Positions 42,901 through 57,851 of a stretch of DNA of 64,000 nt are shown here, one piece after another. A program made the translations under genes and the position numbers. The stretch covers positions 20,014 to 84,013 of the forward strand of contig CAZSLL010000002.1 in assembly GCA_964607835.1 (NCBI GenBank), in the 5' to 3' direction. The notes under the pieces were generated by a model. That model was not told the origin of the DNA. It searched no databases and saw nothing but the letters and a program-made list of their open reading frames with translations. How positions within the stretch are numbered: the first letter of the stretch is position 1; each line of letters starts with the position of its first letter. Origin of the DNA: an uncultured archaeon. GTDB taxonomy: Archaea > Aenigmatarchaeota > Aenigmatarchaeia > QMZP01.

Positions 42901-45778
42901 GCTTCGCTCCACAGGCAACGATGATTTGTCAGATGTCAACTTCTCCATATCAGGCATATTCAGCGAGTTCGTGATAGGCTTCAACAAGAGCTACCCGTTC
43001 ACCATGGCCCCGGGCGATGTGTTTACTGTCAGGGTGAACGCCACCACCTATCCCGGATTCTCCCCAGGGGATTATGACGGATACATCAACGTGACCTCGT
43101 CCAACGACGGCTACAAACCAGTTGAGCTCAACATAACCGTGCCCCAGAATGGCTCCTGGACCATGAACACCACCTTCTGCGAGCACGCCCAGAGCCCCAA
43201 CTCAGGCACTGTTTGCGATGTGCTCATAAACAACACCGGCAACATAATGCTCAACTTCACCATCGAGCCCCCGGCAGGCGCCAACCACACAACGCCCAGC
43301 AACGCCACCCTCAACATTAGCAAGCAGTCATCTGACGTGCTGTCCATATTCTACGACATGGGCACAGAGGCAGGGGAGGGCTTCTTCTTCACCAACTACA
43401 CCGTTGCCCCCAACCAGAGCGCAGGAGAGCCCGGCAACCTGATCCTTTCCATACTCCTCAACCCCTTCGTCGAGCCCCTGGTGGAGATAGGCCTGACTCC
43501 TCCTGACCAGCAGCAGGCAGGCAGCACCGCCATGGTCATCAATGTCACCAGCCAGTCAGGGGCAGAGTTCGACGATGTGAGGCTCACTGTTCAGAGGCCT
43601 GACGGCACCAACGACACCATGTTGCTGGGTTTCAGCCACCAGGTGTTCTGGTACGGCTGCGACTTCAGCATCAGCGACCCTGGCGACAAGCTCTGCTTCC
43701 AGGTAACGTACCCGGGAACCCTTCCTGGCAACACCAGCGAGCGGGGCAACTACACCGTGTTCGTTTACGCCAACGACACTTACAGGGTCAACACCACCAA
43801 CACCTCCACGCTCAGGATTTTCACTCGCTACATGGCCAACGTCAACATGCCCGATGTTATCCAGGGAAGCTGGGAGAGCATTGAGTACAGGGCCACAGAC
43901 TACCTGGGCGCCGCCCTGCCCTACGCCTCGGTCAACCTCACGGTTAAGGACCCCAACAACCGGATAGTGTACATGCTCTCGGGGAAAGAGTACACAGCCG
44001 ACGAGCAGGGCTGGGTGGGGGACAACATATTCGTCATCCCGGGCCATGCCACAGAGGGCGAGTACAGGGTTCTCACCAACGGCTCCTGGACTGACCCTGA
44101 CCTGGGCATGCTGGTGAGCAATGAGACCGAGGCCATGTTCAATGTGACGGCCAACCAGGAGCTCACCGGAAAGGTGGCCGTGCCCAGCCCCATATACATG
44201 GACAACACCATGACGGTCTCTGTTATAGTGCTGGAGAACCTTCACGAGCCTGTGGACCCTGACGAGATAAACGTGACCATATACTACACAGAGGGCTACG
44301 GACTTCAGGAGTGGAGGACGCTTGACCTCTCTGACTTCAACCGCACCCAGGAGGGATTCTATGAGTACTCAGAGGTCCTGAGCAGCGTGCTCACGGGCAG
44401 CTACCTGGCCCTGCTAAGGGTCTCCCTGGGAGAGAGGGAGACCTATGACATCCAGCCCTTCAGGGTGGCCTCAGGAGGGCCCTACGACGTCATCCTGGAC
44501 CTTGGCGAGAGCGAGGTTCAGCAGGGAAGCACCCTTCCCTTTGACATCACCATATGGAACAAGGGAGAGGTGGACCACAAGGACGTGGTTGCCACCTACT
44601 GGGTGTACGGCAGCGGCCAGAGCTGGGACTCTTCCAGCTTCTCCACCAACATAGTGGGAGGTCAGAACAAGACATTTGGCAGGACTTCTTTCATATACTC
44701 CAATCAGCCCCCTGGCCTCTACACCCTCAACGCAGAGGTGCTCTACGACCCCAACCAGCCTCCTGCCACCGCAAACGCCACTTTCCTGGTCACCAGCACC
44801 GCAGAAGAAGATGAAGGAGGCGGCGGGGGCGGGGCTCCTGCCCCCGGAGGCGCAGCGCCCGCGGCCCCCAGGGGTACCCTCAACATCACAGAGGCCCCTG
44901 ACGTTATAGGGGCAATGGTGGGGCTTCCCAAACTCTTCAGTATAGAGGTGGAGGCAGTGGGCGGGCCGGTGACAGGAGTGGAGCTGGACTTCCAGGGAAT
45001 CCCTGAATCCTGGGTAACCGTGGAGCCCGTCAACCTGAGCAGGATTTCCTCAGGAGGGACAGCAATATTCACGGTCCAGCTCCTGGTTCCCAGGGGGGAG
45101 TCAGGGGACAGGAAGGTCAAGGTGGTGGCCCGCTCCAAGGAGTCCACTGACGACAGCGATTTCACGCTGAGGATATTCACATCCAGGCAGGACCTCATCA
45201 GCTTCGAGCTGGCCAGGCTCAGGGCCAAGCTCGAGGAGCTCAGGGAGCGCTCAAGGAAGGCGGCTGAGGCCGGGTTTGACACAGGCAGGGTGGACGACAC
45301 CCTGGATGATGCCGAGAGGGAGATAGAGCTCGCAGAGCAGTACCTGAGGGAGGAGCTCTACGATGCCTCCCTGGAATCAGTCTATACTGCCTGGAAGCTC
45401 CTGGACAAGGCCGAGGATTTGCTCGACCTGATGCTGGCAGGGTTCTCGCTTCCCTGGTGGCTCATTGTCATCATAATTTTCGCCCTGGTAACGGTGGTGC
45501 TGTTCTTCCTGTACAGGAAGATAAGCAGAAACCTCTCGGTCATGGTCAGGGGAAGGCTCTCCGAAGCCAGGCAGGTGGCAGGTACCATAAAGGGCTCAGG
45601 CGCTGAGGTGGACTCCCTCAGGGACGAGAAGGCCAGGGTCACCAGGATGCTCAAACTCCTGGAAACCCAGCACAAGCAGGGCATAATATCCAAGGAGGCT
45701 TACGACAGCCTGAGAAAGAGGAGCGAGCAGAGGCTGGGGGATATTGACAAGAAGATAAGGCAGTCCCTGTCAGGCTAG
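39893..45778 (+). CDS. 1961-aa surface protein: N-terminal signal/anchor, DUF2341-like domain, sequon-rich CARDB/Ig-like repeats, Gly/Ala/Pro linker, membrane-proximal helical stalk, TM helix, SHOCT-like cytoplasmic tail
   Basis: The N-terminus 'MTSKGSGNARRIGLLLGALVLAALLL' is followed by 'WHYRVKIDVS..TDWPVEYEANF...' (DUF2341-like). The linker is 'EEDEGGGGGGAPAPGGAAPAAP'. The TM segment 'LPWWLIVIIIFALVTVVLFFLY' is at nt 45445-45513. The tail '..RMLKLLETQHKQGIISKEAYDSLRKRSEQRL' is SHOCT-like. Confidence 0.85.
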   Translation: MTSKGSGNARRIGLLLGALVLAALLLHNQNAVQQEYGEEWWNGSWHYRVKIDVSTESMERTDWPVEYEANFTSLLNDLGVSGEFDPNSTRVLEVNSSGGILREVPSQFDPALDYNSTSNAAGELVFMLNGTNAPGTTRWFYVYFDTTSHAKSGATYDSELEAQWDGEEFNITFNNQDTEHYGFFAFDTERGENTSGLYQFRLYDTWRFTYPNSNQKTREYIRTTDGSSDFGYDLRDNATMVDGPARVTVRQEGYEVYFGEADNRTNKTYIRKTYYFYPNKTWFVVEQEILNINGSSVDRASYAGLSGFDLEGAYGIGYKWLTNYTQDPGSYVSGGGGTGVERVGYANLWENSTSNFMAGNSTDGGSPDYDLIGINLSMTTIEPGESIRNRFVMVFYHTVNSPTLLPDTMRGLMNGVSIAEEEPEMWVITAQPEPDHGIYNRNESAILVANVTRDDWYIVDHANATLDMGTPGSSADDITVSLRDDGACPDQAAGDGYHSAYYNFSDSEATGEWNMTVRLYDRDGAFLNESYYTFNITDVLELSIDIWNVTGIWRVENATVNVTNYMQDIQVPGATLNCTSNQGQIPQENITDNGDGTYVVTFETPLDYGLYPLNCSAQKDGSWGWQLENYTVEAPETNISLTTDPSLYHAYNVTYFSNESFGLKVTLRNLENSTAYWANITLDVPGNLTSNSTLETCGENLLIGLTCVRHFNITVLNNTINDTYQIGVTINWTNRVGTQDSNTTAVDVIVHETPTLNVLEENVTGILPPGANSQKIETLVARSDGNNRVYNINFTKVGLGNFTIGFSPQETGMLGPGESQPVEVTVTVPEGQFPGIYYGFINATSDNGGYDVLNTTIIVTGTNLTINASPETYSAMYVTAFTNESMEIAVNVTNIGNTTAFNTYVNMTFPGNWYINETSHSCGNMTRGSTCMSYYYINITELTHAGSYDVEAMIFWEDIGISWFDRNDTVNVTVVSNATLEVLEDQFVKTMEHDNTSLLGELTLRSTGNDDLSDVNFSISGIFSEFVIGFNKSYPFTMAPGDVFTVRVNATTYPGFSPGDYDGYINVTSSNDGYKPVELNITVPQNGSWTMNTTFCEHAQSPNSGTVCDVLINNTGNIMLNFTIEPPAGANHTTPSNATLNISKQSSDVLSIFYDMGTEAGEGFFFTNYTVAPNQSAGEPGNLILSILLNPFVEPLVEIGLTPPDQQQAGSTAMVINVTSQSGAEFDDVRLTVQRPDGTNDTMLLGFSHQVFWYGCDFSISDPGDKLCFQVTYPGTLPGNTSERGNYTVFVYANDTYRVNTTNTSTLRIFTRYMANVNMPDVIQGSWESIEYRATDYLGAALPYASVNLTVKDPNNRIVYMLSGKEYTADEQGWVGDNIFVIPGHATEGEYRVLTNGSWTDPDLGMLVSNETEAMFNVTANQELTGKVAVPSPIYMDNTMTVSVIVLENLHEPVDPDEINVTIYYTEGYGLQEWRTLDLSDFNRTQEGFYEYSEVLSSVLTGSYLALLRVSLGERETYDIQPFRVASGGPYDVILDLGESEVQQGSTLPFDITIWNKGEVDHKDVVATYWVYGSGQSWDSSSFSTNIVGGQNKTFGRTSFIYSNQPPGLYTLNAEVLYDPNQPPATANATFLVTSTAEEDEGGGGGGAPAPGGAAPAAPRGTLNITEAPDVIGAMVGLPKLFSIEVEAVGGPVTGVELDFQGIPESWVTVEPVNLSRISSGGTAIFTVQLLVPRGESGDRKVKVVARSKESTDDSDFTLRIFTSRQDLISFELARLRAKLEELRERSRKAAEAGFDTGRVDDTLDDAEREIELAEQYLREELYDASLESVYTAWKLLDKAEDLLDLMLAGFSLPWWLIVIIIFALVTVVLFFLYRKISRNLSVMVRGRLSEARQVAGTIKGSGAEVDSLRDEKARVTRMLKLLETQHKQGIISKEAYDSLRKRSEQRLGDIDKKIRQSLSG

Positions 45779-46602
45779 GATGGCGCGCCGGAAGCACCGA
45801 AGACCTCCTGCTCAGGGAATACCTCGATGCCCTTTCCTGTGATTATCTGCATGGCCACGACCTTCTTCCTGTGCTCAGCCCCCCTCATCTTGAGGACCTC
45901 GACTGCGGATTCCCTGACGTCCCCGCGCCGTATGTTGTAGAAGACTATGACTCCGTCAGCCAGGAACTCCTCCACCCCGGTCCTGCTGAATGCCGAGGGG
46001 CTCTGGTCGGTTTCTGTGATGAGGAAGGATGTGGCCCCGCTCTTCTCGAAGAACCGGAAAAGCTGCTCTATGTAGCTCCTGTAGTTCTGCTCCCTGCTCA
46101 CGAAGTATGACGATATCGCGCTGAGCGAGTCAAGGACAATTATATCGGGCCTGAAGCCCTTGGGAATGATTAGGGGCTCCACGTTTATCATGAGCTCGCC
46201 CCTCTGCTTGGCCATCATGGCGTCCATGGACTTGCTGATGTCGTACGACCTGAACCTCTTGAGCACGAGCTTTCCTGAGGCCTCCATCTCTCTTGGGTCC
46301 CAGCCAAAGTCCTCCATGTGCTCCCTGAGCCTGTCCTCGTGCTCCTCGAATGACATGTATATGCATTTCTTTCCTGCCTGGACCGCATTGGTGATGAGCT
46401 GGAGGCAGCCTATGGTCTTTCCTGAGCCCGCTCCACCAGAGACCAGGACGTTGGAGCCCACTGGAATCCCTTTGGTGAACAGCCTATCCAGGCCCTCGAT
46501 GCCTGTCCTGATGAAACCCCTCCTCAGGGGCTTCTCCTTCTTCAGGGCCTTTCCAGAGCTGCTTTTTTGCTTCCCCTTTGCCTGGCTCTTTTCCTTTGCC
46601 AC
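45775..46602 (-). CDS. KaiC-like / RecA-superfamily single-domain ATPase with Lys-rich N-terminal tail
   Basis: 'GIEGLDRLFTKGIPVGSNVLVSGGAGSGKT' is the classic KaiC/RadA P-loop context. The stop overlaps the convergent upstream gene by 4 nt, and the gene lies 36 nt downstream of the 46639..50742 gene on the same strand. Confidence 0.85.
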   Translation of the reverse strand: MAKEKSQAKGKQKSSSGKALKKEKPLRRGFIRTGIEGLDRLFTKGIPVGSNVLVSGGAGSGKTIGCLQLITNAVQAGKKCIYMSFEEHEDRLREHMEDFGWDPREMEASGKLVLKRFRSYDISKSMDAMMAKQRGELMINVEPLIIPKGFRPDIIVLDSLSAISSYFVSREQNYRSYIEQLFRFFEKSGATSFLITETDQSPSAFSRTGVEEFLADGVIVFYNIRRGDVRESAVEVLKMRGAEHRKKVVAMQIITGKGIEVFPEQEVFGASGAPS

Positions 46603-46638
46603 GAAATCACACTACATTAGTATTGTCCTGACGGGCTT

Positions 46639-49600
46639 TTATATCCTGACGCCCTGCCTCATCATGTATATCGCCTTCTCCACCCGTACAAGCCTGGACC
46701 TGTGCCTGTCCATGACTGCCTCATAGTCAGCCCTTCCCAGGGAGCCAATGCTGAAATACCTCTTCTGGGCATGGGACATCAACTCCTTTATGGAGCCCCT
46801 CTCTGACTCCAGCTCCCTGAGCTTCTTCCTGAGCCTGGCCCCACTCCTGAGCCTCCTGAGCCCGAGCCATGCAGGCGGAAGGGCCAGCGCCGCAGCCAGG
46901 AGGTATGCCCAGTTTTCCGTTGCTGCCCTGGAAGCCTGCTCCAGGGGGGAGGAGCTAAGGCCCCTCTCCATGGCAGCCTCTGCCCTGGCCTCCTCCACGA
47001 GCTCCAGTGCCTCACCCAGCCTCTGTTCGGCTTCTATGTAGCTCTCTGAACCGAAAAGGGAGATTCCTTCCTCAAGGGCCTCCCTGGCCTCCAGCACATC
47101 AAGCCCTTCCTCCCCGGCCCCGAGTATTTCCTGCTCTGCATGGTCAATAAGCATGTCCGCTTCCCTGGCTGCATTGAATATCACGCCCACCTGCCTGGCC
47201 AGGGCCAGGGCTGCCGATTCCTCTCCCCTGGCCTGCATCAGCCTGGCTTCGTTGAGCACGTCCGAGACGTGAGAGGTCTTGAAGCCGCTTCCTGCCATGT
47301 CCGCTATGACCAGCTCTGCCTCCCGGATCTCCTGCTCCAGCGTGGCCTGGACATCCTGGGCCGCTACCAGACCTGACATCAGGACAATGCCCGCCAGGGC
47401 GACTGCCGCGATTCCCAGGCCTAATGAACCCTTCCTCTTCCTGAGCATGTCCATACTCTTGTCGATTTCCGCGGTCTCCTGCCTCATCCTCTTCATTATG
47501 GCCTCGTAAAGCCCTCTTCCGACACCGTCCCCGCTGAAGTACCTCCTCTGGGTGTCCTTCATGAACCTGGATATCTCTTCCCTTTCTCTCCTGAGGCTCT
47601 TCAGGGTCTTCCTGACAGAGCCCCCTCCTGATATTAGCCTTGCCTTGGCCCTCTTTATGTCAGCCAGCCTTGCCTCGTAGTCCTGCACTGCCCTGGAATA
47701 GGTGTCCTTCCCCACCCGGGGCCTGGCGCTGAAGTAGGCCTTCTGCAGGTTGACTATCATTCGCTCCAGTCCCCTCTCCTCCAGTCTGAGGCTGCTTATC
47801 CTTGCCCTGAGAAGCCTGGTTGCCGTATACCTCCTTCCCAGAAGCAGGGCCGCTGCCAGCCCTGCGGCCCCCATGCCAAGGAACACCCAGTTCTCCCTGA
47901 TACCCGAGAGCACCCACAATAACCCGTAGGTCTCCAGTGAGAAGGAGGCCCTGGCACTCAGTGCACGCTCCTCTGCCCTCTGGTAGTCCCCCCTCTGGAA
48001 TGCCATCTCAGCAAGCCTTAGAAGACTCTCTGACTCCGGTGCCTCTATGCCGTTCTCCTTTGCGCTGGATATGTCCCCCTCCAGTCCAGCCATCATGCCC
48101 TCGACCCTGAAGGCCAGCTCTGCCTTCTCGATTACCTGCTCTGCAATCTCCCTGGCTGCCTCGTAGTCCCACTCGCCTGCCAGGGCATCCATCCTCTCTA
48201 TGCTGGCGTTCATGTTCTCTGCAGAGTACCCTGCCTCCTGCATTTCCGCGGAAAGCTCCCTGGCCCTGTCCAGCAGGTCTGACTCCTCTCCTGTGCTAAC
48301 CACTGACACAGTCATGGAGTGAGAACCCGAAAGGGTCCGGTTGAGGGTCCTCCCCCCGCCCGAGAGCTCCATGGAGAGGTTGTACTGGCCCTGGGAAATG
48401 TACCCAGGCGCCTCAAGGGTAACTATGAACCTCACGGTGTCGCCCTGGTTCACCCCGTTCCTCTCCTCAGGGGACACTGTGACATATGTCAGGGGGTAGC
48501 CCGAGACCTCCAGGGACAGGCTGTCTGATGTAAAGCTGAGGCCGTACTCTATGTTCACAGAGAAGCTATGGTTGCTCCCCCTCTCAAGCTCCAGTCTTTG
48601 CGGCGCGCTCAGTGAAAGGGCGTTCTCGGTTACCGGTGCCCCTCCCCCGCTTATGACCGTGGTACCGGCGGAGCTTCCTCCTCCTCCGTCCTGGCAGTCG
48701 CTGTCAGTGGAGGAGCTGCAGCCCAGGCCGCACACCCCGTCAGTGCTGCTGCATGAGACCCCGATGACAGCAGAGTCAGATGCGTTGGAGCCCTCTGAGC
48801 AGCTTGAGTTCACCATTAGAGCAACTGCCCCTGCGCCGGCGCTGGCCGGGTCTATGCTAAGGGACAGTGTGCTGGTGTAACTGGCCCCCTGGGAGAGGCT
48901 GCCCACGAAATGGCTGGCATTGCCTGATGTGTTGGAGAACCCTGAAGGAAGGCTGAAATTCAGCCGCACTCCGGTAGCGGTCTCGTTCCCGATGTTCTTG
49001 ACCCTCGCTGAGACGTTCACCCCTGTATCGCTCTGGCTTACAGATGTGGGGGCCCGGGTTATCTCGAGCTCAAGGTAGGGCCCGCCCACGTATGATATGA
49101 GGGTGGCGTTGGCCACCCTCTCGGCAGGCTCTGCGTTTTCGCTTGCCGCACCTATGGTGAGGTTGACCGCATACTCGTAGGCCTGGGAGGTGGCGGTGGC
49201 GTTGACCATTATGCTGAGGTTGCTGCCTGCAGCCACGTCAAAGCTGTCAGGGTTGGATAGGTTGTACTCGGTGTTGGTGTAGGTTGAGGTTATCCCGAAG
49301 CTGAGGGGATAGTCCCCTGTGTTGGTTATGGTGAGCACCCCAAGGGCGCCCTCCTCGTTGATGTATACGTAGGTTGTCCCGAGCCCCTGCGGATTCACGG
49401 ACCACGTGTAGTCGTAATCAACTGTGAGGCTGTACTCGCTGGAGTTGCCAGAATGCCCCATGGTGTCATTGGCCCATATCCTGTAGTACCACATACCGTC
49501 AGGGGCGGGCACGCCGAAGGAGGCGTTGTACTGGCCAGAGAGGTTGCCCATGGTCACATTCGACCACGTGGAGACCGACTCCCTCCTGTACTGGAGAATG

Positions 49601-50742
49601 GCGGTGTGCACCCCGCTGGGGTCTGTGATGTTGGCCGTCACGTTGACGTCTATCCCCGGGTCGAGCAGGTCATTACCCTGGGGGGAGCGCTCCACTCCTG
49701 CTATTCCGGGCGGGGTGCCCGAATCGATGAAGAAGGTGCGGTTGGTGTTGTTCCAGGTGCTGTTGCTCTGGTTGTCAACTGCATAGCAGGTCCATAAATA
49801 CTCCCCGTCTGCCAGGCCTGTTATGTTCCATGTCCTGCTGAGATATCCGGGCGCGCCCAGGCCGGACTCATAATGCCCCTGAATCTCGTCCCTGGCCACC
49901 GCGCTTGTGAATACGATGAGCTCATCAAAGGCGGCGTCCAGCTGGTCGTTTGCCTGGTAGTCGCTCCCTATGTAGGCCGTGGATGGGGTCCATGATGGGT
50001 AGTAGGCCCCTCCCATGTAAGGGTTCGCTGTTGTCGCGTTGCTGCCGTCCACCATGAGGTCCATGTTGCTGTTGTCATAGTCCCAAACCGCTGCCACGTG
50101 ATGCCATTCATCCGATGACCATGATATGTCCTGGTAGGTGAAGCTCCTTGAGCCGTAATCGTCATACCATTCGAACACCAGCTGTCCTGTTGAGTTTATG
50201 AAAAGCCTTACCTGGTTTGACTTGTCCCCGTGGCTCTCTCCCATCATGAAAAGCCATGCTGTGCCTGATATGGAAGCCCTGGGCCTCACCCAGAACTCGA
50301 CTGTGCCTACATACGAGCTCATCCTTCCCGTTGTGCTGAAGCTCAGGGAGTCCCCTGAGCCCACCCTGGCGGCCTCCCCTGTCTTGCCGGGCTCCAGGCT
50401 GGCGCCGCTCTGGGTCAGTGTTCCTGCTGAGCCACCGCCTGAGTTGTAGCAGCTGTAGTTCTGCATGTGGCATAGCATGGTGTGGCCGAGCCCTGGCTGT
50501 AGCTCTCCGTAGAGCACTCTCTTCAGCCTTTCCCAGCTGTCCCCTGTATCAGCATAGAGGGTCAGTTCTGAAACCGCCTCATCGTCAGTGGCGTTGCATG
50601 TAATCCCGGTGTAGTTCACCGGGGACACATATGAGTCCTGAGGAGAGACCATGAGGGCCTCTGGCGGAGCGGCAGAGCAGGTTCCTGCAAATATGACAAG
50701 CCATACGATAAGTGCCAAAGCCGTTAGTGAAAGCCGAGCCAT
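46639..50742 (-). CDS. 1367-aa surface protein: signal peptide, LamG-like domain, Ig/CARDB-like sequon-rich repeats, Cys-motif + Gly/Ser linker, membrane-proximal helical region, three TM helices separated by SHOCT-like '[KR]YFS...Y...RL' cytoplasmic repeats
   Basis: The N-terminus 'MARLSLTALALIVWLVIFAGTCSAAPP' is a signal peptide. The LamG signature is 'TVEFWVRP...SDEWHHVAAVWDYDNSNMDLMVDG...FDELIVFTSAVARDEI'. The Cys motif and linker are 'DGVCGLGCSSSTDSDCQDGGGGSSAG'. The three TM segments are 'LLWVLSGIRENWVFLGMGAAGLAAALLLG', 'LGLGIAAVALAGIVLMSGLVAA' and 'WAYLLAAALALPPAWLGL'. The repeats are 'QKAYFSARPRVGKDTYSRAVQDYEARL', 'TQRRYFSGDGVGRGLYEAIMKRMRQ' and 'AQKRYFSIGSLGRADYEAVMDRHRSRL'. Confidence 0.85.
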   Translation of the reverse strand: MARLSLTALALIVWLVIFAGTCSAAPPEALMVSPQDSYVSPVNYTGITCNATDDEAVSELTLYADTGDSWERLKRVLYGELQPGLGHTMLCHMQNYSCYNSGGGSAGTLTQSGASLEPGKTGEAARVGSGDSLSFSTTGRMSSYVGTVEFWVRPRASISGTAWLFMMGESHGDKSNQVRLFINSTGQLVFEWYDDYGSRSFTYQDISWSSDEWHHVAAVWDYDNSNMDLMVDGSNATTANPYMGGAYYPSWTPSTAYIGSDYQANDQLDAAFDELIVFTSAVARDEIQGHYESGLGAPGYLSRTWNITGLADGEYLWTCYAVDNQSNSTWNNTNRTFFIDSGTPPGIAGVERSPQGNDLLDPGIDVNVTANITDPSGVHTAILQYRRESVSTWSNVTMGNLSGQYNASFGVPAPDGMWYYRIWANDTMGHSGNSSEYSLTVDYDYTWSVNPQGLGTTYVYINEEGALGVLTITNTGDYPLSFGITSTYTNTEYNLSNPDSFDVAAGSNLSIMVNATATSQAYEYAVNLTIGAASENAEPAERVANATLISYVGGPYLELEITRAPTSVSQSDTGVNVSARVKNIGNETATGVRLNFSLPSGFSNTSGNASHFVGSLSQGASYTSTLSLSIDPASAGAGAVALMVNSSCSEGSNASDSAVIGVSCSSTDGVCGLGCSSSTDSDCQDGGGGSSAGTTVISGGGAPVTENALSLSAPQRLELERGSNHSFSVNIEYGLSFTSDSLSLEVSGYPLTYVTVSPEERNGVNQGDTVRFIVTLEAPGYISQGQYNLSMELSGGGRTLNRTLSGSHSMTVSVVSTGEESDLLDRARELSAEMQEAGYSAENMNASIERMDALAGEWDYEAAREIAEQVIEKAELAFRVEGMMAGLEGDISSAKENGIEAPESESLLRLAEMAFQRGDYQRAEERALSARASFSLETYGLLWVLSGIRENWVFLGMGAAGLAAALLLGRRYTATRLLRARISSLRLEERGLERMIVNLQKAYFSARPRVGKDTYSRAVQDYEARLADIKRAKARLISGGGSVRKTLKSLRREREEISRFMKDTQRRYFSGDGVGRGLYEAIMKRMRQETAEIDKSMDMLRKRKGSLGLGIAAVALAGIVLMSGLVAAQDVQATLEQEIREAELVIADMAGSGFKTSHVSDVLNEARLMQARGEESAALALARQVGVIFNAAREADMLIDHAEQEILGAGEEGLDVLEAREALEEGISLFGSESYIEAEQRLGEALELVEEARAEAAMERGLSSSPLEQASRAATENWAYLLAAALALPPAWLGLRRLRSGARLRKKLRELESERGSIKELMSHAQKRYFSIGSLGRADYEAVMDRHRSRLVRVEKAIYMMRQGVRI

Positions 50743-50825: not shown

Positions 50826-52070
50826 ATGAAAGAAAAGGGAATCATGAGGAGAATCGATTTTCTGGTCATCCCTTCCATAATCATCCTTTTCCTGGCTGCC
50901 CTGGCCATAGACTCCTATCAGCCAGGAGCCCTCAGCCTTGCGGGAAAACCGCATGATGGGAGGCTGCTCATGGCCATGGGAAGCTTCGAGGGCAATGTGC
51001 CTGGGGAGGCCCTGATATGGGTGCTGGGGCCGGATGGCAGCCACGAGGAGCTCTCCCTGGAGGGCTCCAATGTTTGCCACAGGGTGCTGTCAGCTGACCT
51101 GGACCATGACGGTGTGCCTGAGCTATATGCCGCCACTGGCCAGAACGCATCAGTGTTCTCTCTCACCCCATCAGGTAATGGATGGGATACCCAGTTGATA
51201 TGGGAGCCGGACTGCAGCAGGGTGAGGGACCTGGAGGCAGGGGACGTGGACGGTGACGGTGCACAGGAGCTGGTGGCAGTGACCCACTTGCCAGGAAAGA
51301 TTGCCGTCATCAGGCCGGATGGTGCCCAGTGGCAGGTCACAGAGCTCCTCTCGCTCAATGGCACCTACATCCATGAGGTCGAGCTGTATGATGCCGACCA
51401 GGATGGGTCAGACGAGATATTCTCAACTCCATCAGAACCCAACCAGGCCAAGGGCCTGAGCCAGCCCGGAAGGATTCTCATGCACAGCTGGAACGGCACG
51501 GGCTTCTCTGTGAGGGAGCTGGCCTCCTTCAGCACCACCCACGCAAAGGAGATTTCTATGGGAGACCCTGACAACGATGGCCTGCCTGAGCTCCTGGCCG
51601 CTGTCCAAGGAAATGCCACCCGCCATCAGGTCCCTGGGGAGGGTGTGGTGAAGCTTGTCATAGAAACTCCCCTTCGGATAATGCTCTGGGACATGGCTGA
51701 CCTGTCCGCAGAGGGGAGTGTCATTACAGAACTCCCTGGCATAGGGGCAAGGGCGCTTGCAGTTGGTGATGCTAACAATGACGGCCTGAACGAGCTCCTC
51801 TTGGGCACCGAGACCGCAGGGCTCCACCTTCTCATGCACAGGAATGGCTCCTGGAAAACGGAGTCCATCGACTCCTCCTTAAGGGGCAACATAGGAGGCG
51901 CCATCATCGCAGACCTTAATGGCGACGGCCTCAATGAGGTGGTGGCCAGTTCTGATTCCCTGGGTCTGGTCAGGTCATACTCCCGTGAATCAGGCGTTTG
52001 GCAAGGCGAGACCGTGCTTGAAACAGGGGGGCACTGGGTATGGGCCATGTCATGGGGGGATGCCCTGTGA
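50826..52070 (+). CDS. Membrane-anchored FG-GAP repeat (integrin-alpha-like beta-propeller) protein
   Basis: An N-terminal TM segment 'IDFLVIPSIIILFLAALAI' is followed by at least six 'D.D.DG..EL' Ca-binding-type FG-GAP repeats: DLDHDGVPELY, DVDGDGAQELV, DADQDGSDEIF, DPDNDGLPELL, DANNDGLNELL and DLNGDGLNEVV. Confidence 0.8.
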   Translation: MKEKGIMRRIDFLVIPSIIILFLAALAIDSYQPGALSLAGKPHDGRLLMAMGSFEGNVPGEALIWVLGPDGSHEELSLEGSNVCHRVLSADLDHDGVPELYAATGQNASVFSLTPSGNGWDTQLIWEPDCSRVRDLEAGDVDGDGAQELVAVTHLPGKIAVIRPDGAQWQVTELLSLNGTYIHEVELYDADQDGSDEIFSTPSEPNQAKGLSQPGRILMHSWNGTGFSVRELASFSTTHAKEISMGDPDNDGLPELLAAVQGNATRHQVPGEGVVKLVIETPLRIMLWDMADLSAEGSVITELPGIGARALAVGDANNDGLNELLLGTETAGLHLLMHRNGSWKTESIDSSLRGNIGGAIIADLNGDGLNEVVASSDSLGLVRSYSRESGVWQGETVLETGGHWVWAMSWGDAL

Positions 52071-53449
52071 GAAGGCTCGCCCTGCTCCTTCCCGCCATCG
52101 TTGCTGCCATGGCAATCCCCCTGGCCTACACCGGCCAGCTCGCCCCTGCAGAGGAGTATTCGTGCGAGGGGTGCAGCCTCCTCCTGGTCACAGCCGACAC
52201 CCTGAGGGCAGACCATGTCTCCTCCTACGGATACTTCCAGCAAACCACCCCCAACATTGATGCTTTGGCCTCCAGGGGCATCCTTTTCGAGCAGGCTTAC
52301 ACCCAGGTTCCCTTCACCCCGCCCTCGCACTGGACCATTATGACAGGGCTCTACCCCTTCCATCACGGAATGTACCTTCCCACCAACGAGAGCAGGCTCG
52401 AGACCCTGGCCACAAGGCTGTCCAGGTCAGGCTATGACACAGCGGCCTTCACTGCCAGCTACATGGTGGGCAGGCTGGAAAGGGGGTTCGGTGTCTTCGA
52501 GGTCCCTGCCTTCAGGACAGAGAAGGAGTACAGGCCCGCCACGAACGTCACCGAATCAGCGCTCAGCTGGCTCATGCAGAGAGACGGGGAGGGACCATTC
52601 TTCCTCTGGGTGCACTACTTCGATGCCCACAGCCCCTACCAGCCCCCTGATGGGCATGACATATACGACTATTCCATGGAGCCCAGGTACGCGGATGAGC
52701 GGTACTCCAGAGCGGGCATAGACAACTTCAGGCCCATCAGGGATGACATCGCAAGGTATGACGGGGAGGTCCGCTACATGGACAACCAGCTCGGCAGGCT
52801 CCTTGGCGAGCTGGAGTCCCTCGGCCTCTCTGAGAACACAATGGTGGCGGTAGTGTCTGACCACGGGGAATGTTTTGGCGAGCACCTTTTCTCTGACTTC
52901 GGGTATGAGATGACCGGGCCCTGCCTGTTCCATGACAAGACCCTCTACCAGGAGGAGGTGCATGTCCCCATGGTCTTGTACAACCCCAGGGCCAGGAGGT
53001 CTTCAGGCACCAGGATTGGCGAGATAGTGGAGACCGCTGACCTCGCTCCCACGCTGCTCGAGACCCTGTGCCTCATTCCCCCTGAGGGACTGGACGGCAG
53101 GAGCATGGTCCCTCTCATAGAGGGCAACTCCTCGGGCTTCGGAAGGGCGTTCATGCAGATAAGGCCGGGAGAGACCGGCATATTCGCCTACGGCCTCCTT
53201 TCGCCTGAATGGAAGTTCGTGAGGGCAGGCCTCTCACTGGACCGCCAGGGTCATGTCCAGGAGCACGAGATGCTGTTTGACAGGAAGAACGACCCGCGTG
53301 AGATGGTCAATGCCCTGGGTCAGAGGCCGGGCCCTGCACAGGAGATGGAGGAAGAGCTCGCGGAAGTCATGGGCAGCGGGCTCTCTGAAAGGGTGTACAT
53401 AGACAGCAGGACCGAGGAGATGCTCAGGATGCTGGGGTACCTTGCCTGA
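52040..53449 (+). CDS. Sulfatase-family (alkaline-phosphatase superfamily) exported enzyme with Thr/His substitutions at the formylglycine-motif positions
   Basis: An N-terminal signal-like segment is followed by 'LLLVTADTLRADHVSSYGY' (sulfatase metal-binding N-terminus) and 'VPFTPPSHWTIMTGLYP'. The latter sits where the sulfatase signature C/S-x-P-S-R...LTGR lies, but reads T-P-P-S-H. Downstream sulfatase-like blocks include 'PFFLWVHYFDAHSPY' and 'VVSDHGE'. The start overlaps the preceding gene by 31 nt; an in-frame ATG 12 nt downstream is an alternative. Confidence 0.75.
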   Translation: MGHVMGGCPVRRLALLLPAIVAAMAIPLAYTGQLAPAEEYSCEGCSLLLVTADTLRADHVSSYGYFQQTTPNIDALASRGILFEQAYTQVPFTPPSHWTIMTGLYPFHHGMYLPTNESRLETLATRLSRSGYDTAAFTASYMVGRLERGFGVFEVPAFRTEKEYRPATNVTESALSWLMQRDGEGPFFLWVHYFDAHSPYQPPDGHDIYDYSMEPRYADERYSRAGIDNFRPIRDDIARYDGEVRYMDNQLGRLLGELESLGLSENTMVAVVSDHGECFGEHLFSDFGYEMTGPCLFHDKTLYQEEVHVPMVLYNPRARRSSGTRIGEIVETADLAPTLLETLCLIPPEGLDGRSMVPLIEGNSSGFGRAFMQIRPGETGIFAYGLLSPEWKFVRAGLSLDRQGHVQEHEMLFDRKNDPREMVNALGQRPGPAQEMEEELAEVMGSGLSERVYIDSRTEEMLRMLGYLA

Positions 53450-53464: not shown

Positions 53465-53521
53465 GCACTACGGTTAAACACATCATCTTAAAAGTTATAT
53501 ATTTCACAGAATAATATAAAC
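53465..53521 (+). promoter_or_regulatory. AT-rich putative promoter (TATA-like 'AAAGTTATATATTT') upstream of the 53522 gene
   Basis: An AT-rich island sits directly 5' of the ORF, with the TATA-like element about 20-32 nt before the ATG. Confidence 0.45.
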
Positions 53522-53857
53522 ATGGCTGAACTCAGGAACGTGGACATACAGGGAAGCGACATCATCGTCAACATGCGAATCACCAGGGACGAGTACAATC
53601 TCCTGGGTCAGAGGACAGGTGACATTGCGCTCATTCCCGCTGGCGACAGGGAGCTCGACCACACGCTGACCTCGGGCAAGCTCGGCAACAGCAACCGGAT
53701 AATGCTGCCCAAGAAGCTCCTTAACATGGAGGGCATAGTGCATCTGGAGAAAAAGCTTGCCTCCAGGTTTTTCAGGGTGAACGGAAGCGTGTACCTGCTC
53801 ATAAGGCTCAGGGAATCCGATGTGGGCATTCCCATGTTCATGGAGGAAGGCAAATGA
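53522..53857 (+). CDS. Small hypothetical protein (111 aa), possibly AbrB/SpoVT-like swapped-hairpin DNA-binding fold
   Basis: 'NRIMLPKKLLNMEGI' resembles the AbrB/SpoVT 'grvtIPkeiReklgi.eGd' motif. A 4-nt ATGA overlap with the downstream KaiC-like gene indicates an operon. The fold assignment is weak. Confidence 0.55.
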   Translation: MAELRNVDIQGSDIIVNMRITRDEYNLLGQRTGDIALIPAGDRELDHTLTSGKLGNSNRIMLPKKLLNMEGIVHLEKKLASRFFRVNGSVYLLIRLRESDVGIPMFMEEGK

Positions 53858-54522
53858 GCGTCACCACTGGCATCAGGGGCCTGGACAGTCTCACGGGAAA
53901 GGGCTTTCCCAGCAACACCGTGGTTCTTGTCTCGGGCCAGCCAGGCACAGGCAAGACCCTGCTGAGCCTTGGCTTCCTCATGGAGGGGGCCAGGAAGGGC
54001 GAGAAGTGCTGCTTCGTGTCCCTGAGCGAGAAGAAGGATGAGCTGGTCAGGGCGTGCAAGGGTATAGACTCCATGAGGGACGTGGAGAAGCATCTGGGAA
54101 AGAACCTTGCCATTGAGCATATAGAACTCGGGGAGAACATCACCCTCAAGCGCTTCCTGGAGATAATGTCAAAGTACCCCAAACTGGACAGGCTGGTCAT
54201 AGACAACGTCAACAAGCTCCTCATATTCTCAGAGAGCCCCAGGTATTACAGGCTCAACCTGGCCGAGCTCGTCAAGCACATCAAGGTCATGGGGTGCAGT
54301 CTCCTCCTCTGCGAATCCAACGGCGACGCCATAGACTCGGGCAACCACGAGGCCTTTGAGTGCGACGGGGTGGTCCAGCTCTCTTTCCTCGACTTCGATG
54401 AGAGGCCCATGCGCTCCCTGTCCATACACAAGATGAGATATGCTGAGTTCCAGCCCAGGGTGCACCACAGGATTGACATAACCAGCAAGGGCATATCCCT
54501 CTCCCGCCAGAGGGCAGTGTGA
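53854..54522 (+). CDS. KaiC-like / RecA-superfamily single-domain ATPase
   Basis: 'GIRGLDSLTGKGFPSNTVVLVSGQPGTGKTLLSLGF' is the Walker A in KaiC context. A 'RLVIDNVNKLL' Walker B-like strand follows. Confidence 0.85.
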   Translation: MSVTTGIRGLDSLTGKGFPSNTVVLVSGQPGTGKTLLSLGFLMEGARKGEKCCFVSLSEKKDELVRACKGIDSMRDVEKHLGKNLAIEHIELGENITLKRFLEIMSKYPKLDRLVIDNVNKLLIFSESPRYYRLNLAELVKHIKVMGCSLLLCESNGDAIDSGNHEAFECDGVVQLSFLDFDERPMRSLSIHKMRYAEFQPRVHHRIDITSKGISLSRQRAV

Positions 54523-54538
54523 CCTGAGACCGGTTGGC

Positions 54539-55546
54539 ATGAGGCTGTCAGAATCCCTTCGAAGGAACGTATTGGAGGCGTCAGGCTCAGGCATAATCAA
54601 CCGCTTCAAGATGACCCTGAGGAGGGACGTCCTGTGCTTCGAGTCCATTCTCGCCGGCTACATCAGGGAATGCGAACGCTCCGGCCATGCGGAAACAATG
54701 TCCGCCGTGGCGAGGGAGTGGGCATTCCTGTACGCCGGCAATTTCATGCCCAGGGCCGCCCTCAGCCTTCCCAGGACACTTCTACTCAACAGCCTTCTTC
54801 CCAAGGTGTGGAGGAACATTGGTCTTCTGGAGGCCTTCCATGCCTCCTTGGGGAACGGAAAATTAGAGATAACTGTCAGGGGTGAGGGTATAACCAGGAC
54901 CATAGGGAGGAACAGCTTCTGCCAGGGCCTCTGGCAGGGGGTGCTTGAGAGCGTGCTGGGAGAGGGTCTCTTCCTCAGGAGCTCCTTCCAGGACAGGGAG
55001 CGCTCCAGGTACTCCTTCTCCAGGGAAGGGGAGCCCCCCTCTTACACGGCCAGGGGGCTTGACGAGTACAGGAGGCTCAACGACATCACCCACTCCAGGG
55101 AGGGCCTCAGGACACATGTCAGGAAGGGCTCCATATCGCTCAGGGGGAACAGGCTCTTCTACCGGGGCAGACCCATCGTCCTGGGAGAGAACACGCTTTT
55201 CCATCTCCTGGGGAGGGAGGGCATCATGCTTGAGAGTGTAAGAGAAATATCAGGGGAGCTCTTCACATCACTCCTGGGGCCAGGCTCATCCCATGATGAC
55301 AGCATGCTCTTCCTCAAGGCCATGCTCCAGACCTTTGGCTGGGGAAGCGCCTCCATAGCTATGGACGGGAAGAAGATTTCTGTGAGCATAAGGAACCCGC
55401 CCTACGGCATCCAGGCATCAGATGACTGCTGGGACTTCCTGGCCCGAATGGTGCAGGGCTTCCTGTGCGCCAGGGTTCATGACTGTTCAATGGACAGTGC
55501 TGGCCTGTCAGGGAGGTCTCTGTCCCTGAGGTACTCATGCAGGTGA
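54539..55546 (+). CDS. Hypothetical protein with two V4R-like (4-vinyl-reductase-type) halves; possible small-molecule-binding regulator
   Basis: Both halves carry Gly/Cys-containing motifs that I read as V4R-like: 'TRTIGRNSFCQGLWQGVLESVLGEG' and 'DDCWDFLARMVQGFLCARVHDC'. This is recognition from memory only. Confidence 0.35.
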   Translation: MRLSESLRRNVLEASGSGIINRFKMTLRRDVLCFESILAGYIRECERSGHAETMSAVAREWAFLYAGNFMPRAALSLPRTLLLNSLLPKVWRNIGLLEAFHASLGNGKLEITVRGEGITRTIGRNSFCQGLWQGVLESVLGEGLFLRSSFQDRERSRYSFSREGEPPSYTARGLDEYRRLNDITHSREGLRTHVRKGSISLRGNRLFYRGRPIVLGENTLFHLLGREGIMLESVREISGELFTSLLGPGSSHDDSMLFLKAMLQTFGWGSASIAMDGKKISVSIRNPPYGIQASDDCWDFLARMVQGFLCARVHDCSMDSAGLSGRSLSLRYSCR

Positions 55547-56452
55547 CCTAACGAGCCCGGGCAGTTCACTCTCCAGCCTGGTTTTGGCCAGCTCCGCTGC
55601 CTGCCTGAATCCCGCTGCCATGGATAGGAGCCTGTCCCTGGACGGAAAGGCCCTGGCAACCCGCTCAGCTTCCCTTATATGGCTTTCTATCATTCCGTAT
55701 ACCACTGAGAAGGGCTGCCCTGAATCCAGAAGGAACATGGGAAGGGTTACCGGGTTGTCATAGTTCCTGAGGTCGTCCCTTAGGTCTATGAGGTCATCTA
55801 TCAGCTGGAGAACCACGCCCAGCCTTTCCCCTATCCTCTCTGCGTGGGCCAGGTACTCCCTCCCCCCACCCAGCAGGGCGCCCAGCCTCAGGCCGTGCTT
55901 GATAGGGCAAACTGTCTTGTGGGTGGCCCTCAGGTATTCTGTGATGTCGAACCCCATCTTCCTGAAGGCCTCCATGTTTCGGGCGTCCATGAGCTGGTAC
56001 ATGGCCACATTGTGCATGGTTCTGGCTATTTCGTCCATGACCATGGAGCTCTCCGGGCTGCCCGCCTCCCTGAATATCAGCTCATATGCCCTGTTCTGGA
56101 GGAGCTCTGAGGCAGAGAGGTGGGCGACCATGGAATAGTGGTCCTCCCTGAACTCGTCAGCCACGTCATCATCCACAGACACAGCCAGACCTATCAGACC
56201 GAAGCCTGTTACAGGGTTCCTGAGGGACCCGGGAAGGAGCCTCCCGGTCACTGCGTGGTGGCCGTACTCTGCTGACATGTAGGGGAACAGGAACCCTGTC
56301 CTGCTGAAGCAGCCCCGGAAGGTCCTGGAAAGAAACGGGTTCTCTCTTGAAAGGGAGGCTACCACCCCGTTGTAATGGCCCAGTATCCGGTTCAGGTCAC
56401 TGCCGAAGAGCAACTTCATGAGGGCAGAAGTGGAGCGCGTGGTCAGGTCCAC
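55535..56452 (-). CDS. trans-Isoprenyl diphosphate synthase family protein (polyprenyl synthetase-like)
   Basis: The second Asp-rich motif 'GVVLQLIDDLIDLRDD' matches G.aFQi.DD.lD. 'KTVCPIKHGLRLGALLGG' matches the KT...a.lg block. The first Asp-rich region 'VSVDDDVADEF' is atypical. A 10-nt overlap with the upstream UbiA gene indicates an operon. Confidence 0.65.
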   Translation of the reverse strand: MDLTTRSTSALMKLLFGSDLNRILGHYNGVVASLSRENPFLSRTFRGCFSRTGFLFPYMSAEYGHHAVTGRLLPGSLRNPVTGFGLIGLAVSVDDDVADEFREDHYSMVAHLSASELLQNRAYELIFREAGSPESSMVMDEIARTMHNVAMYQLMDARNMEAFRKMGFDITEYLRATHKTVCPIKHGLRLGALLGGGREYLAHAERIGERLGVVLQLIDDLIDLRDDLRNYDNPVTLPMFLLDSGQPFSVVYGMIESHIREAERVARAFPSRDRLLSMAAGFRQAAELAKTRLESELPGLVRSPA

Positions 56453-57240
56453 AGCAGCACCGCCAGGAATACAGGAAGGGTGGAGAAGGAAAGCAGTATG
56501 CAGGCCCTGGCCATTTTCATGTCATCCCTGGCCAGGAACAGGGAGAGCAGTACCAGGAAGACCGAGAGCGAGGCCATTCCGTGGTAGGCCACGGCGGCCA
56601 GGGCGGCACCGCACCAAAGCATGATGTGCAGAATGAGCGAGGCCCTGGCCGGCCCCAGAAGCACGGGGAGGGTCCTCAGCCCGGCTGCCCGGTCTCCTGC
56701 GAGGCCCCTGATGTCTCCCAGCAGGTTGAGGGAGAACCCCAGCAGGAAGGGAAGAGGAACCCAGGCCGCTGCTGCATGGAGGGGTTGCCCTGCTGCAAGG
56801 GCTCCTGCCAGGAAGACCAATGACATCACCGACCCTGTATACGGGTTCTTGAGGAAGTATAGTGCCTTGAGCCTAAGGGCAGAGTAGGCCAGCCCCAGTC
56901 CGAGTGCAGCGAGGCAGCAGGCCCCTGCTGGGAGGGGAAGCATGATGGCAGAAAGCCCTGCCCCGGCACCTGCCATAACCGGCACATACCTTCCGGCTTT
57001 CCTGTACGAGAGCGGGTTCACGCCCCCGTTGACAGAGTCCTCCTCCCTGTCAGTGAGGTGGTTGTATGAGTAAATGGAAGAGCTGGAGAGGAGCGCCCCC
57101 AGGAACAGTGGTACAAGCAGGAACCCGGGAGGGCTGAATACAAGGAACCCCGAAACCGCAATGCCTGCAGAGAAAAGCCCTGTCTCCAGCCTCATGAATC
57201 TGGAGAGCTCCGCCAGGCCTTCCTGCCATCCTACGCCCAT
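56443..57240 (-). CDS. UbiA-family prenyltransferase (DGGGP-synthase-like integral membrane protein)
   Basis: 'YNHLTDREED' matches N...D...D, and 'GDIRGLAGDRAAGLRTLPVLLG' matches the D...DR..G..TLPv pattern. The whole 265-aa protein is multi-pass hydrophobic. Confidence 0.8.
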   Translation of the reverse strand: MGVGWQEGLAELSRFMRLETGLFSAGIAVSGFLVFSPPGFLLVPLFLGALLSSSSIYSYNHLTDREEDSVNGGVNPLSYRKAGRYVPVMAGAGAGLSAIMLPLPAGACCLAALGLGLAYSALRLKALYFLKNPYTGSVMSLVFLAGALAAGQPLHAAAAWVPLPFLLGFSLNLLGDIRGLAGDRAAGLRTLPVLLGPARASLILHIMLWCGAALAAVAYHGMASLSVFLVLLSLFLARDDMKMARACILLSFSTLPVFLAVLLWT

Positions 57241-57335
57241 GTTTTATTATTAATTGGTATTCATGTTTATATAATTTATAAAATTGTTTAAACATAACAC
57301 CCAAAGATATAAAGCAAGCTACCCAAGGATTTACC
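57241..57335. promoter_or_regulatory. AT-rich divergent promoter region (multiple TATA-like boxes) between the UbiA (-) and 57336 (+) genes
   Basis: 'TTTATTATTAATTGGTATTCATGTTTATATAATTTATAAAATTGTTTAAAC...AAAGATATAAAG' is about 80% AT over 95 nt. Confidence 0.5.
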
Positions 57336-57851
57336 ATGGTCATGAAAGGCCTTACCATGGTAATTGCTGACGAGGAGAGTTACCCTGCCAGGCTCGGGCT
57401 GGTCAGGGAGCTGGAGAACCACAGGAAGATATGCTATGTCTGCCTCAACAGCCTGGCCTGTGACGTAAAGGATGAACTCGATTCACTTGGCATTGACACG
57501 TCCAGATACCACTTCATAAACACCCTGAATCCACCTGGGGGCCACCATGCCACCAGGCCAGGGTTTTCTCAGGTGTCCTCGCCCTACAACACCCAGGAAA
57601 TCCTTGACGAGATGAAGAGGCTTGGGGAAGAGTGCAGCGCCTTTGTCTTCGACCCCATAACCAGCATGCTTCACTTCCACGACGTGTCCTCGATGGTGCT
57701 ATTCACCAATGAGGTGGCGGGCAGGAGCAGGGTTCTTTTCATTGTGCTGCACGACGGTATAGTGCCCGAGTCTGAACTGAAGAGGTTCATCGCTGACGCA
57801 GGCATGTTCGCCATGTCCATCAGGGAACTCTCCTCAGGCAGACGGGAGTGA
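57336..57851 (+). CDS. Walker-A-less KaiC/RecA-fold paralog (degenerate pseudo-ATPase), hypothetical
   Basis: It aligns by eye to the 53854 KaiC-like protein. 'LTMVIADEESYPARLGL' sits where 'VVLVSGQPGTGKTLLSL' would be, so the P-loop is lost. 'AFVFDPITSML' and 'VLFIVLHDG' match the core beta-strand positions. Confidence 0.5.
   Translation: MVMKGLTMVIADEESYPARLGLVRELENHRKICYVCLNSLACDVKDELDSLGIDTSRYHFINTLNPPGGHHATRPGFSQVSSPYNTQEILDEMKRLGEECSAFVFDPITSMLHFHDVSSMVLFTNEVAGRSRVLFIVLHDGIVPESELKRFIADAGMFAMSIRELSSGRRE

Follow-up and report, generated by a model that had tools for sequence, protein, structure and literature searches.

Why should three genes for KaiC-like proteins lie within 12 kb of each other in an uncultured aenigmatarchaeon, one of them directly behind the gene of a 1367-aa surface protein? 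We addressed this question for a stretch of 64,000 nt of contig CAZSLL010000002.1 (hereafter the window). An earlier inspection of the letters alone (the sequence-only reading) had placed the three genes, and our map of open reading frames (ORFs) agrees with it at all three places. We call the genes K1, K2 and K3 and the surface protein S1367, and use S for its homologues (Table 1). The answer that we favor, and consider probable, is that the window carries a signalling cassette conserved among DPANN archaea, and that the neighboring complex of membrane-anchored surface proteins is most likely its output.

Table 1. Genes of the window discussed in the text, with positions counted from the first nucleotide of the window
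Feature	Position	Strand	Length (aa)	Description
Giant ORF	1..37758	+	at least 12,585	Open at window start; LamG, DUF2341, MG2, NEW3
C649	37954..39903	+		Predicted cytoplasmic coiled-coil/disordered protein with tail-motif copies; convergent with K1
B1961	39893..45778	+		Predicted signal peptide, transmembrane segment 1855-1873 and cytoplasmic tail motif; convergent with K1
K1	45775..46602	-	275	GTG start; single-domain KaiC-family ATPase, core conserved gene of the cluster
S1367	46639..50742	-	1367	Membrane-anchored surface protein; LamG_3 and NEW3 (Pfam)
FG-GAP repeat protein	50826..52070	+		Pfam; N-terminal hydrophobic anchor; divergent from S1367, upstream of Abr
Sulfatase	52040..53449	+		Pfam; N-terminal hydrophobic anchor; divergent from S1367, upstream of Abr
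Abr	53522..53857	+	111	End overlaps K2 start by 4 nt
K2	53854..54522	+	222	Second KaiC-family ATPase
V335	54539..55546	+	335	Last gene of the Abr-K2-V335 operon; starts 16 nt after K2 stop
Polyprenyl synthetase-like gene	55535..56452	-		Pfam; between the K2 module and K3
UbiA prenyltransferase gene	56443..57240	-		Pfam; between the K2 module and K3
K3	57336..57851	+	171	Inactivated KaiC-like protein; 43 nt upstream of the receiver gene
RR	57895..58266	+	123	Stand-alone receiver; operon with K3
HK	58263..60629	-		Sensor histidine kinase, membrane; dCache-HAMP-HisKA-HATPase (Pfam); convergent with RR
Kinase-less dCache-HAMP sensor	60626..62419	-		Pfam; operon with HK (4-nt overlap)
Kinase-less multi-PAS sensor	62416..63933	-		PAS families (Pfam); first gene of the PAS-Cache-HK operon; TTG start at 63933

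For practical purposes, chance can be dismissed as the reason why the three genes lie together, because the arrangement recurs in many related genomes. We fetched 80 genome loci containing relatives of K1, called their ORFs mechanically, labelled these by BLASTP against the proteins of the window and by de novo clustering, and counted neighbors within 10 kb of K1 for 79 loci. Exact-sequence look-ups with proteins of the window itself returned nothing beyond contigs of ~2 kb; sample SRR7048225 contains this sequence. Genes similar to K3 were the most frequent neighbors (47 loci, 71 copies), followed by homologues of S1367 (40 loci), receivers (37), histidine kinases (36), K2 (20), AbrB-like proteins (17) and the 335-aa protein V335 (15). 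The arrangement is polar: sensors, histidine kinases and receivers almost always lie upstream of K1, and S mostly lies immediately downstream.

In the window itself, K1 starts 36 nt after the stop codon of S1367 on the same strand, as the sequence-only reading had noted, and no terminator-like site was found in this gap. (A bacterial sigma-70 promoter scan of the region was set aside as uninformative for an archaeon.) Synteny of K1 with surface-protein genes in relatives, on which that reading had made its proposal depend, was found: S lay within two genes of K1 in 18 of the 36 well-flanked loci, i.e. those with at least 5 kb on either side of K1, and an ORF of at least 1000 aa did so in 24. 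As a within-locus control, we compared ORFs at most two genes from K1, 24 of 273 of which were S homologues, with those further away (9 of 584; Fisher test, p = 1e-6, ignoring kinship among loci); this control is conservative. Of 16 pairs in which the K1-to-S distance was taken, 8 had a spacing of -4 to 20 nt. Gene order varies and the linkage is kept: S precedes K1 here and in two other loci (L002, L010), K1 precedes S in most loci, and S is followed by a separate gene, Sc (see below), and then by K1 in L031 and L063. For the reverse test, we took S genes of metagenome contigs as starting points; among the 19 evaluable loci, each with 2 kb or more on either side, K1 was present within three genes in 9, and K1 or the K3/RR/HK genes were present in 14. 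The synteny spans Aenigmatarchaeota, Woese-, Pace- and Nanoarchaeota and, by name, Micrarchaeia.

These data bear on the explanation that there is no specific functional link at all, KaiC genes being numerous and their adjacency to S reflecting inherited order or a shared variable 'envelope' island. It is well known that the KaiC family has expanded in archaea (2017 KaiC-hub paper, abstract, as cited in PMC5847659), and ~40% of the K1 loci have no S nearby. However, the linkage persists between phylum-level lineages even though S is down to 25-30% identity, it survives rearrangement of gene order, the spacing is operon-like, and S is enriched next to K1 compared with the rest of the same loci. 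We therefore regard the absence of any specific link as highly improbable.

We next asked to which family K1 belongs, using the Pfam cut-off for KaiC (PF06745, 26.6 bits) for the family, and curated hidden Markov model (HMM) cut-offs (NCBIfam/TIGR/PRK) for the subfamily placement of K1 and K2. The sequence-only reading had assigned all three proteins to the KaiC family, and this is borne out for K1 (E = 1e-53, 182.5 bits) and for K2 (E = 1e-37, 130.2 bits); K3 is treated below. K1 contains a Walker A motif (GGAGSGKT), the catalytic pair (SFEE), the Walker B Asp (LDS) and KMRG..H, all of which are invariant across the alignment of its family, as are 62 columns in total, among them GVEEFLADGV and YPEQEVF. 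The family is large, with 57-78% identity to K1, and its source names, where given, are all DPANN: Aenigmatarchaeota, Woese-, Pace- and Nanoarchaeota, and Anstonellales (Micrarchaeia). When the K1 profile was compared with solved structures, KaiC CI domains were the best matches. However, K1 scored far below the models of named subfamilies, namely ArlH/FlaH (NF052589, 49.2 bits, cut-off 215; NF004723, 59.8, cut-off 194), RadB (TIGR02237, 18.7, cut-off 172.4), RadA/Sms (TIGR00416, 22.9, cut-off 403), circadian KaiC (TIGR02655, 94.6, cut-off 546; NF006799/PRK09302, 132.8, cut-off 408) and the archaeal KaiC subfamilies (TIGR03880 (KaiC_arch_3), 117 against 249; TIGR03877, 100 against 307; TIGR03881, 89 against 248). 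K2 behaved similarly (NF052589, 28.4 bits, cut-off 215; RadB, 17.9, cut-off 172.4; TIGR03880, 91, cut-off 249). Judged by these profiles, K1 is a KaiC-family protein but neither ArlH, RadB nor circadian KaiC; since K1 and K2 remain below the cut-offs of all named subfamilies, they represent distinct subfamilies. The P-loop domain of GvpD (PF07088) gave a marginal match to K1 (E = 1.3e-5, 25.6 bits, cut-off 24). In one family member (P0011), the KaiC N-terminus is partly duplicated. With ~60% identity across fast-evolving lineages, K1 is well suited as a marker and as a target for biochemistry.

A Lys-rich tail had been reported for K1. Such a stretch is present, but it comprises the first ~28 residues, that is, the N-terminus, where it is probably disordered. 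Tails of the K1 family have a median length of 46 aa, a K+R fraction of 0.31 and a median net charge of +7, compared with -2 for the protein body, and 78 of 102 carry a net charge of +5 or more. The basic character is thus kept as a property, while the sequence itself is not conserved. Such a tail leads to the main rival of our interpretation, according to which K1 would be a nucleic-acid-associated regulator of the KaiC/RecA type, binding DNA through the tail and controlling transcription, including that of the adjacent S gene, with no membrane contact. Besides the conserved charge, this explanation is favored by one family member (P0114, 405 aa) in which a winged helix-turn-helix-like N-terminal segment and a charged linker precede the KaiC domain, by the very high conservation of K1, which suggests a central cellular role, and by an AbrB-like gene that adjoins K1 divergently in 13 loci. 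However, K1 and most members of its family contain no DNA-binding domain, basic tails also bind acidic membranes, the 0-20 nt spacing from K1 to S points to shared operons and not to a regulator and its target, and the RadB/RadA models stay far below their cut-offs. We consider a DNA-acting K1 rather unlikely.

The topology most consistent with the hydropathy, the sequence and a motif HMM would give S1367 a signal peptide, a LamG/Ig-like ectodomain and a transmembrane (TM) segment at 951-969, followed by two cytoplasmic helical tail motifs (981-1031 and 1045-1103), a second TM segment (1109-1127), a helical ectodomain of ~170 aa, a third TM segment (~1296-1315) and a third cytoplasmic tail motif (1306-1365). 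The HMM was built from the conserved C-terminal 60 residues of S; in addition to the three copies in S1367, it matched B1961 (1906-1955) and C649 in two places (aa 5-60 and 436-488). The motif is helical, ~55 aa long and located after TM segments, with the pattern …Q..YF….ISK..Y……RL..I…, in which Q, F and Y are invariant. Other DPANN lineages carry it in a separate gene: the C-terminal module of S is encoded on its own in Woese-, Pace- and Nanoarchaeota, by a gene (Sc, ~310-330 aa) that overlaps the end of S, as was seen in 10 of 13 pairs. S1367 gave no match to PDB sequences, and the only Pfam similarity of the motif was sub-threshold, to the CdvA-like coiled coil PF18822 (E = 5e-4 to 0.025). 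An assignment of the S1367 motif to the SHOCT domain, made by eye, was dropped when Pfam returned no SHOCT. The shared motif may represent a common cytoplasmic docking or oligomerisation module, and the tails of S-type proteins would be obvious candidates for contact with K1. In L002 and L013, too, the C649-B1961 pair and K1 are convergent, and L049, L054 and L010 likewise contain B1961.

The sequence-only reading had suggested that a KaiC-like protein might power or regulate the surface system, citing ArlH. The first alternative found no support: S1367 has an ordinary signal peptide, and the neighboring giant protein has an ATPase of its own. In this giant, a single strong hydrophobic (TM) segment at 12190-12208 is followed by KSKKKKKSR and then by a cytoplasmic P-loop ATPase domain of the HerA/DUF87 type, with the Walker A motif GSTGAGKS at aa 12272, so that a huge ectodomain is joined to a cytoplasmic ATPase; a homologous giant beside the same genes in L083 (5380 aa) also matches DUF87/HerA_C. 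The same observations bear on the explanation that K1, like ArlH, serves a filament or secretion machine as an accessory ATPase and helps to assemble or export the large surface proteins. Single-domain KaiC-like ATPases such as ArlH are indeed established in archaellum assembly, K1 is in an apparent operon with a secreted protein, and KaiC genes occur in DPANN pilus clusters (PMC9563170). However, the ArlH model gives K1 less than a quarter of its cut-off score, the signal peptide of S1367 is of the normal Sec type, the giant carries its own HerA-type domain, and no ArlI/PilB-type ATPase, ArlJ/TadC platform protein, archaellin/pilin or prepilin peptidase was identified among the genes of the window or the annotated related loci; nor were pilus or archaellum components present among the annotated recurrent neighbor families of K1 loci. 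An ArlH-like role is improbable, and the comparison with ArlH survives as an analogy only. Regulating fits better than powering, because K1 is embedded in a cassette of histidine kinase, receiver and inactive KaiC.

The inactive member of this cassette, K3, had been described as a paralog that had lost its P-loop. The P-loop is indeed absent, but we found no sign of a recent loss. By itself, K3 matched nothing in Pfam (E <= 0.01) or NCBIfam, including PF06745, and BLASTP revealed no pairwise similarity to K1 or K2. A word-indexed homologue search returned no relatives other than K3 itself, and an exhaustive phmmer search returned 67 cluster representatives (K3 included), mostly of 170-200 aa, 52 of which were aligned. 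Scanned singly, these 52 relatives gave weak matches to KaiC PF06745 (41 members with E <= 1, best 1.2e-5) and to families of the inactivated KaiC (iKaiC) type, namely DUF835 PF05763 (33 members, best 1.5e-5), DUF7090 PF23365 (25, best 1.5e-7) and DUF7504 PF24336 (16, best 4e-11). Alignment of the K3 and K1 family profiles by hhalign had a probability of only 4.5%, though its register was that expected for strand 2, with 'NS' of K3 opposite the catalytic 'EE' of K1.

Structure prediction with AlphaFold2 (AF2) supported the fold. A single-sequence model was discarded (predicted local distance difference test, pLDDT, 51), and the model based on the family alignment reached a pLDDT of 92 and a predicted template modelling score (pTM) of 0.88. 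The best PDB matches of the latter by Foldseek were Elp456, PH0250, KaiC-CI and RadA (template modelling score ~0.6), and the segment ADEESYPAR, which runs from the end of strand 1 through the loop into the first helix, occupies the position of the KaiC P-loop. Judged from this model and the family matches, K3 is a RecA/KaiC-fold protein without the P-loop and the catalytic glutamates. Walker A was found in none of 71 K3-like neighborhood genes, compared with 101 of 104 K1- and K2-like genes; since the whole family lacks the P-loop, K3 is an ancient inactivated KaiC-like protein and not the product of a recent loss.

K3 adjoins a receiver, as the sequence-only reading had stated: RR begins 43 nt downstream and contains an intact receiver (REC) domain (PF00072, 94.6 bits, cut-off 30.2) with D10, D11, D54, T84 and K106. 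The label CheY was less apt, as the CheY_Halo model gave 58.9 bits against a cut-off of 200, and RR is thus a receiver but not a CheY orthologue. The adjacency of K3 and RR was observed in 29 gene pairs, most of them 0-8 nt apart. In one locus (L025, 4869-5825, minus strand), a single ORF of 318 aa contains a K3-like domain (5-180) and REC (196-318), possibly a natural iKaiC-REC fusion.

HK and two sensors without kinase domains follow RR on the opposite strand. The frame of the multi-PAS sensor is open upstream of the TTG at 63933 up to the end of the window (64000), and its N-terminus is therefore uncertain. The kinase-less sensors share a C-terminal motif, ELE+F..L.VGRELKMIELKKRI, which was found in 22 ORFs of 20 loci; 20 ORFs other than the two of the window belong to loci in the range L002-L127. 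In the dCache-HAMP sensor this highly conserved end helix, ELERF(S/N)(K/R)L(A/S)VGREL(K/R)M(I/V)ELKKRI, lies at aa ~565-590, and the multi-PAS sensor carries the same helix at aa ~475-500 when residues are numbered from the window end. When the helix is aligned with the H-box of HK (FISVAAHELKTPL), Arg replaces the phospho-accepting His. The helix resembles a truncated pseudo-DHp helix, which might pair with the true kinase. In K1 loci of Woese- and Nanoarchaeota, the recurrent extra neighbors are hemerythrin proteins and HAMP sensors; the former, of ~135-145 aa, adjoin K1 or the kinase (L023, L027, L036, L038, L043 and others), which suggests an input of O2 or iron.

K2 belongs to a second conserved module. 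The sequence-only reading had proposed an operon of AbrB-like, KaiC and V4R-like genes, and the operon itself proved to be conserved: Abr and K2 are adjacent, mostly overlapping, in 14 loci, and Abr-K2-V335 is kept in 15-20 of the 79 K1 loci. This operon and K1 are divergent in most loci of Aenigmatarchaeota, where 55-280 nt separate Abr from K1. The Walker A motif of K2 is intact (GQPGTGKT), and the first catalytic Glu is replaced (SLSE; SL[SN]E instead of FEE throughout the family), so activity may be altered. Members of the K2 family are 55-70% identical, and only Aenigmatarchaeota appear among their source names, which points to an aenigmatarchaeote as the origin of the window. The labels of the two flanking genes fared less well. 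Six of 18 members of the Abr family matched AbrB/MazE/SpoVT PF04014 weakly (best E = 0.0029), the protein of the window itself did not, and the PDB profile search returned nothing significant; with its conserved LTTGKLGNSNRIMLPKK motif, Abr is possibly a swapped-hairpin DNA binder of the AbrB/MazE type. V335 had no match in Pfam, NCBIfam or PDB profiles; in the alignment of its family (13 members, 51% mean column identity), one member matched V4R PF02830 at E = 0.11, and hhalign with a bona fide V4R protein of L083 gave a probability of 12.8% over 28 columns. V335 may conceivably contain V4R-like repeats. A further operon within the K1 cluster of L083 (4085-5972, minus strand) encodes a KaiC (256 aa), a V4R protein (187 aa, PF02830) and DUF116; pairing of KaiC with V4R therefore exists in these genomes.

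How might these parts work together? Our interpretation builds on what we observed, namely the families to which the proteins belong, the missing catalytic motifs of K3, a linkage that is conserved and a spacing like that of operons. Extracellular and cytoplasmic sensors (dCache, HAMP and PAS, with hemerythrin in other lineages) would feed HK, which would phosphorylate the stand-alone RR. RR, presumably co-translated with K3, would act through K3, and K3 would serve K1 either as an adaptor or, in a ring, as a non-catalytic subunit. K1, as an active single-domain KaiC ATPase with a basic and flexible N-terminal tail, would act on the cytoplasmic tail motifs that S1367-type proteins and their partners carry, or would control S in another manner, and the assembly or activity of an adhesin-like surface layer would be altered as a result. 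The Abr-K2-V335 module, which is known only from Aenigmatarchaeota and is divergent from the K1/S unit, would probably be the transcriptional regulator of this unit.

Several points weigh against this interpretation. We infer all protein-protein contacts and the direction of signal flow. The loci of K1 relatives are phylogenetically non-independent, and some metagenome loci represent the same DNA as genome loci. S is absent within 10 kb in the ~40% of well-flanked K1 loci mentioned above; in L017, ribosomal and RNA polymerase genes follow K1 and no S is nearby, and several S homologues have no K1 nearby. K1 (~60% identity) is far more conserved than S (25-35%), and a housekeeping or hub role therefore fits at least equally well. 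The basic tail and the winged-helix-like fusion in P0114 could indicate targets on DNA rather than on the membrane. Finally, an unfused 204-aa variant of the K3-like protein of L025 (P0133) exists, and the fusion in that locus may therefore be a frameshift.

A more specific form of the signalling cassette can be imagined. DPANN archaea are thought to live attached to hosts, and large surface proteins are the usual suspects for contact. We tentatively propose, as a possibility that we consider doubtful, a dedicated DPANN 'inside-out' switch in which the relay from HK through RR to K3 sets the state of a K1 ring, and the ring docks on the tail motifs of S, Sc, B1961 and C649, thereby controlling the clustering or deployment of host-contact adhesin ectodomains. 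Already the cluster itself, which recurs from Aenigmatarchaeota to Woese- and Pacearchaeota, connects surface proteins with a two-component system via a pair of active and inactive KaiC proteins, and so offers a pathway that is concrete, testable and made up of named genes.

Other genes of these neighborhoods are of interest in their own right. A membrane-anchored sulfatase adjoins S in five loci and an FG-GAP (integrin-alpha-like) protein in two (loci L006, L021, L010, L014 and L078). A UbiA homologue occupies the equivalent position in nine loci; it is paired with a polyprenyl synthetase in the window and in L013 and with a radical SAM gene in L017. The UbiA and polyprenyl synthetase genes have no obvious connection to signalling, and isoprenoid lipid genes are noteworthy in DPANN genomes. 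On a 1.1-Mb aenigmatarchaeal contig (L085, 12207-14804, minus strand), the RNA polymerase subunit gene after K1 is interrupted by an intein that includes a LAGLIDADG endonuclease domain.

Full-text searches combining KaiC with the names of DPANN lineages returned no published account of the cluster, although the 2017 KaiC-hub paper may mention the neighborhood; one paper (PMC9563170) mentions kaiC genes, and only in pilus clusters of nanohaloarchaea. Among known systems, GvpD of haloarchaeal gas vesicles is likewise a P-loop protein of the KaiC family and regulates how a cellular structure is produced; however, no gvp genes are present here, the partner proteins differ, and the match to K1 is marginal. 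ArlH (FlaH) is an ATPase of the KaiC family with a single domain; its gene accompanies those of a cell-surface structure, and it is ultimately controlled by a CheY-type receiver. In contrast to ArlH, to whose model K1 has little similarity and whose companions ArlI, ArlJ and archaellin were not identified nearby, K1 is partnered by a membrane-anchored protein of 1100-3000 aa and not by a filament. In the cyanobacterial KaiABC system with SasA/CikA-RpaA, a KaiC-fold ATPase is also coupled to a histidine kinase and a response regulator, and K1 fits KaiC CI best. However, K1 has a single domain (275 aa) rather than two in tandem (~500 aa), neither KaiA nor KaiB was identified in the window, and the likely direction here is from the two-component system to KaiC and not the reverse.

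The K3 model has its best structural matches in Elp456 of Elongator and in Pyrococcus PH0250 (PDB 4a8j and 2ekd), with only 12-14% identity to K3. The subunits of Elp456, which have the RecA fold, assemble into a hetero-hexameric ring, and the resemblance to them suggests that K3 could be a non-catalytic subunit of a ring.

The closest parallel is the proposal of Makarova, Galperin and Koonin (2017), in the summary given by Galperin et al. 2018 (PMC5847659), that KaiC-like ATPases act as signal-transduction hubs in archaea together with iKaiC partners. In other archaea, REC is fused to inactivated KaiC domains, as in iKaiC-REC (Methanosarcinaceae), REC-DUF835 and MEDS-REC (PMC5847659). As in such a hub, an active single-domain KaiC ATPase is located here beside an iKaiC and a receiver that would be fed by sensor kinases. 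The cassette differs in that REC and iKaiC are two coupled genes rather than one polypeptide, in that its K1 belongs to a DPANN-wide, very conserved and basic-tailed subfamily, and in that K1 is in consistent linkage with the genes of a large surface protein anchored in the membrane and of a partner with the tail motif. It would also provide a clear case of a KaiC hub for which the input, kinase and receiver, is identified and a candidate for the output exists, namely a membrane protein whose cytoplasmic motif is defined.

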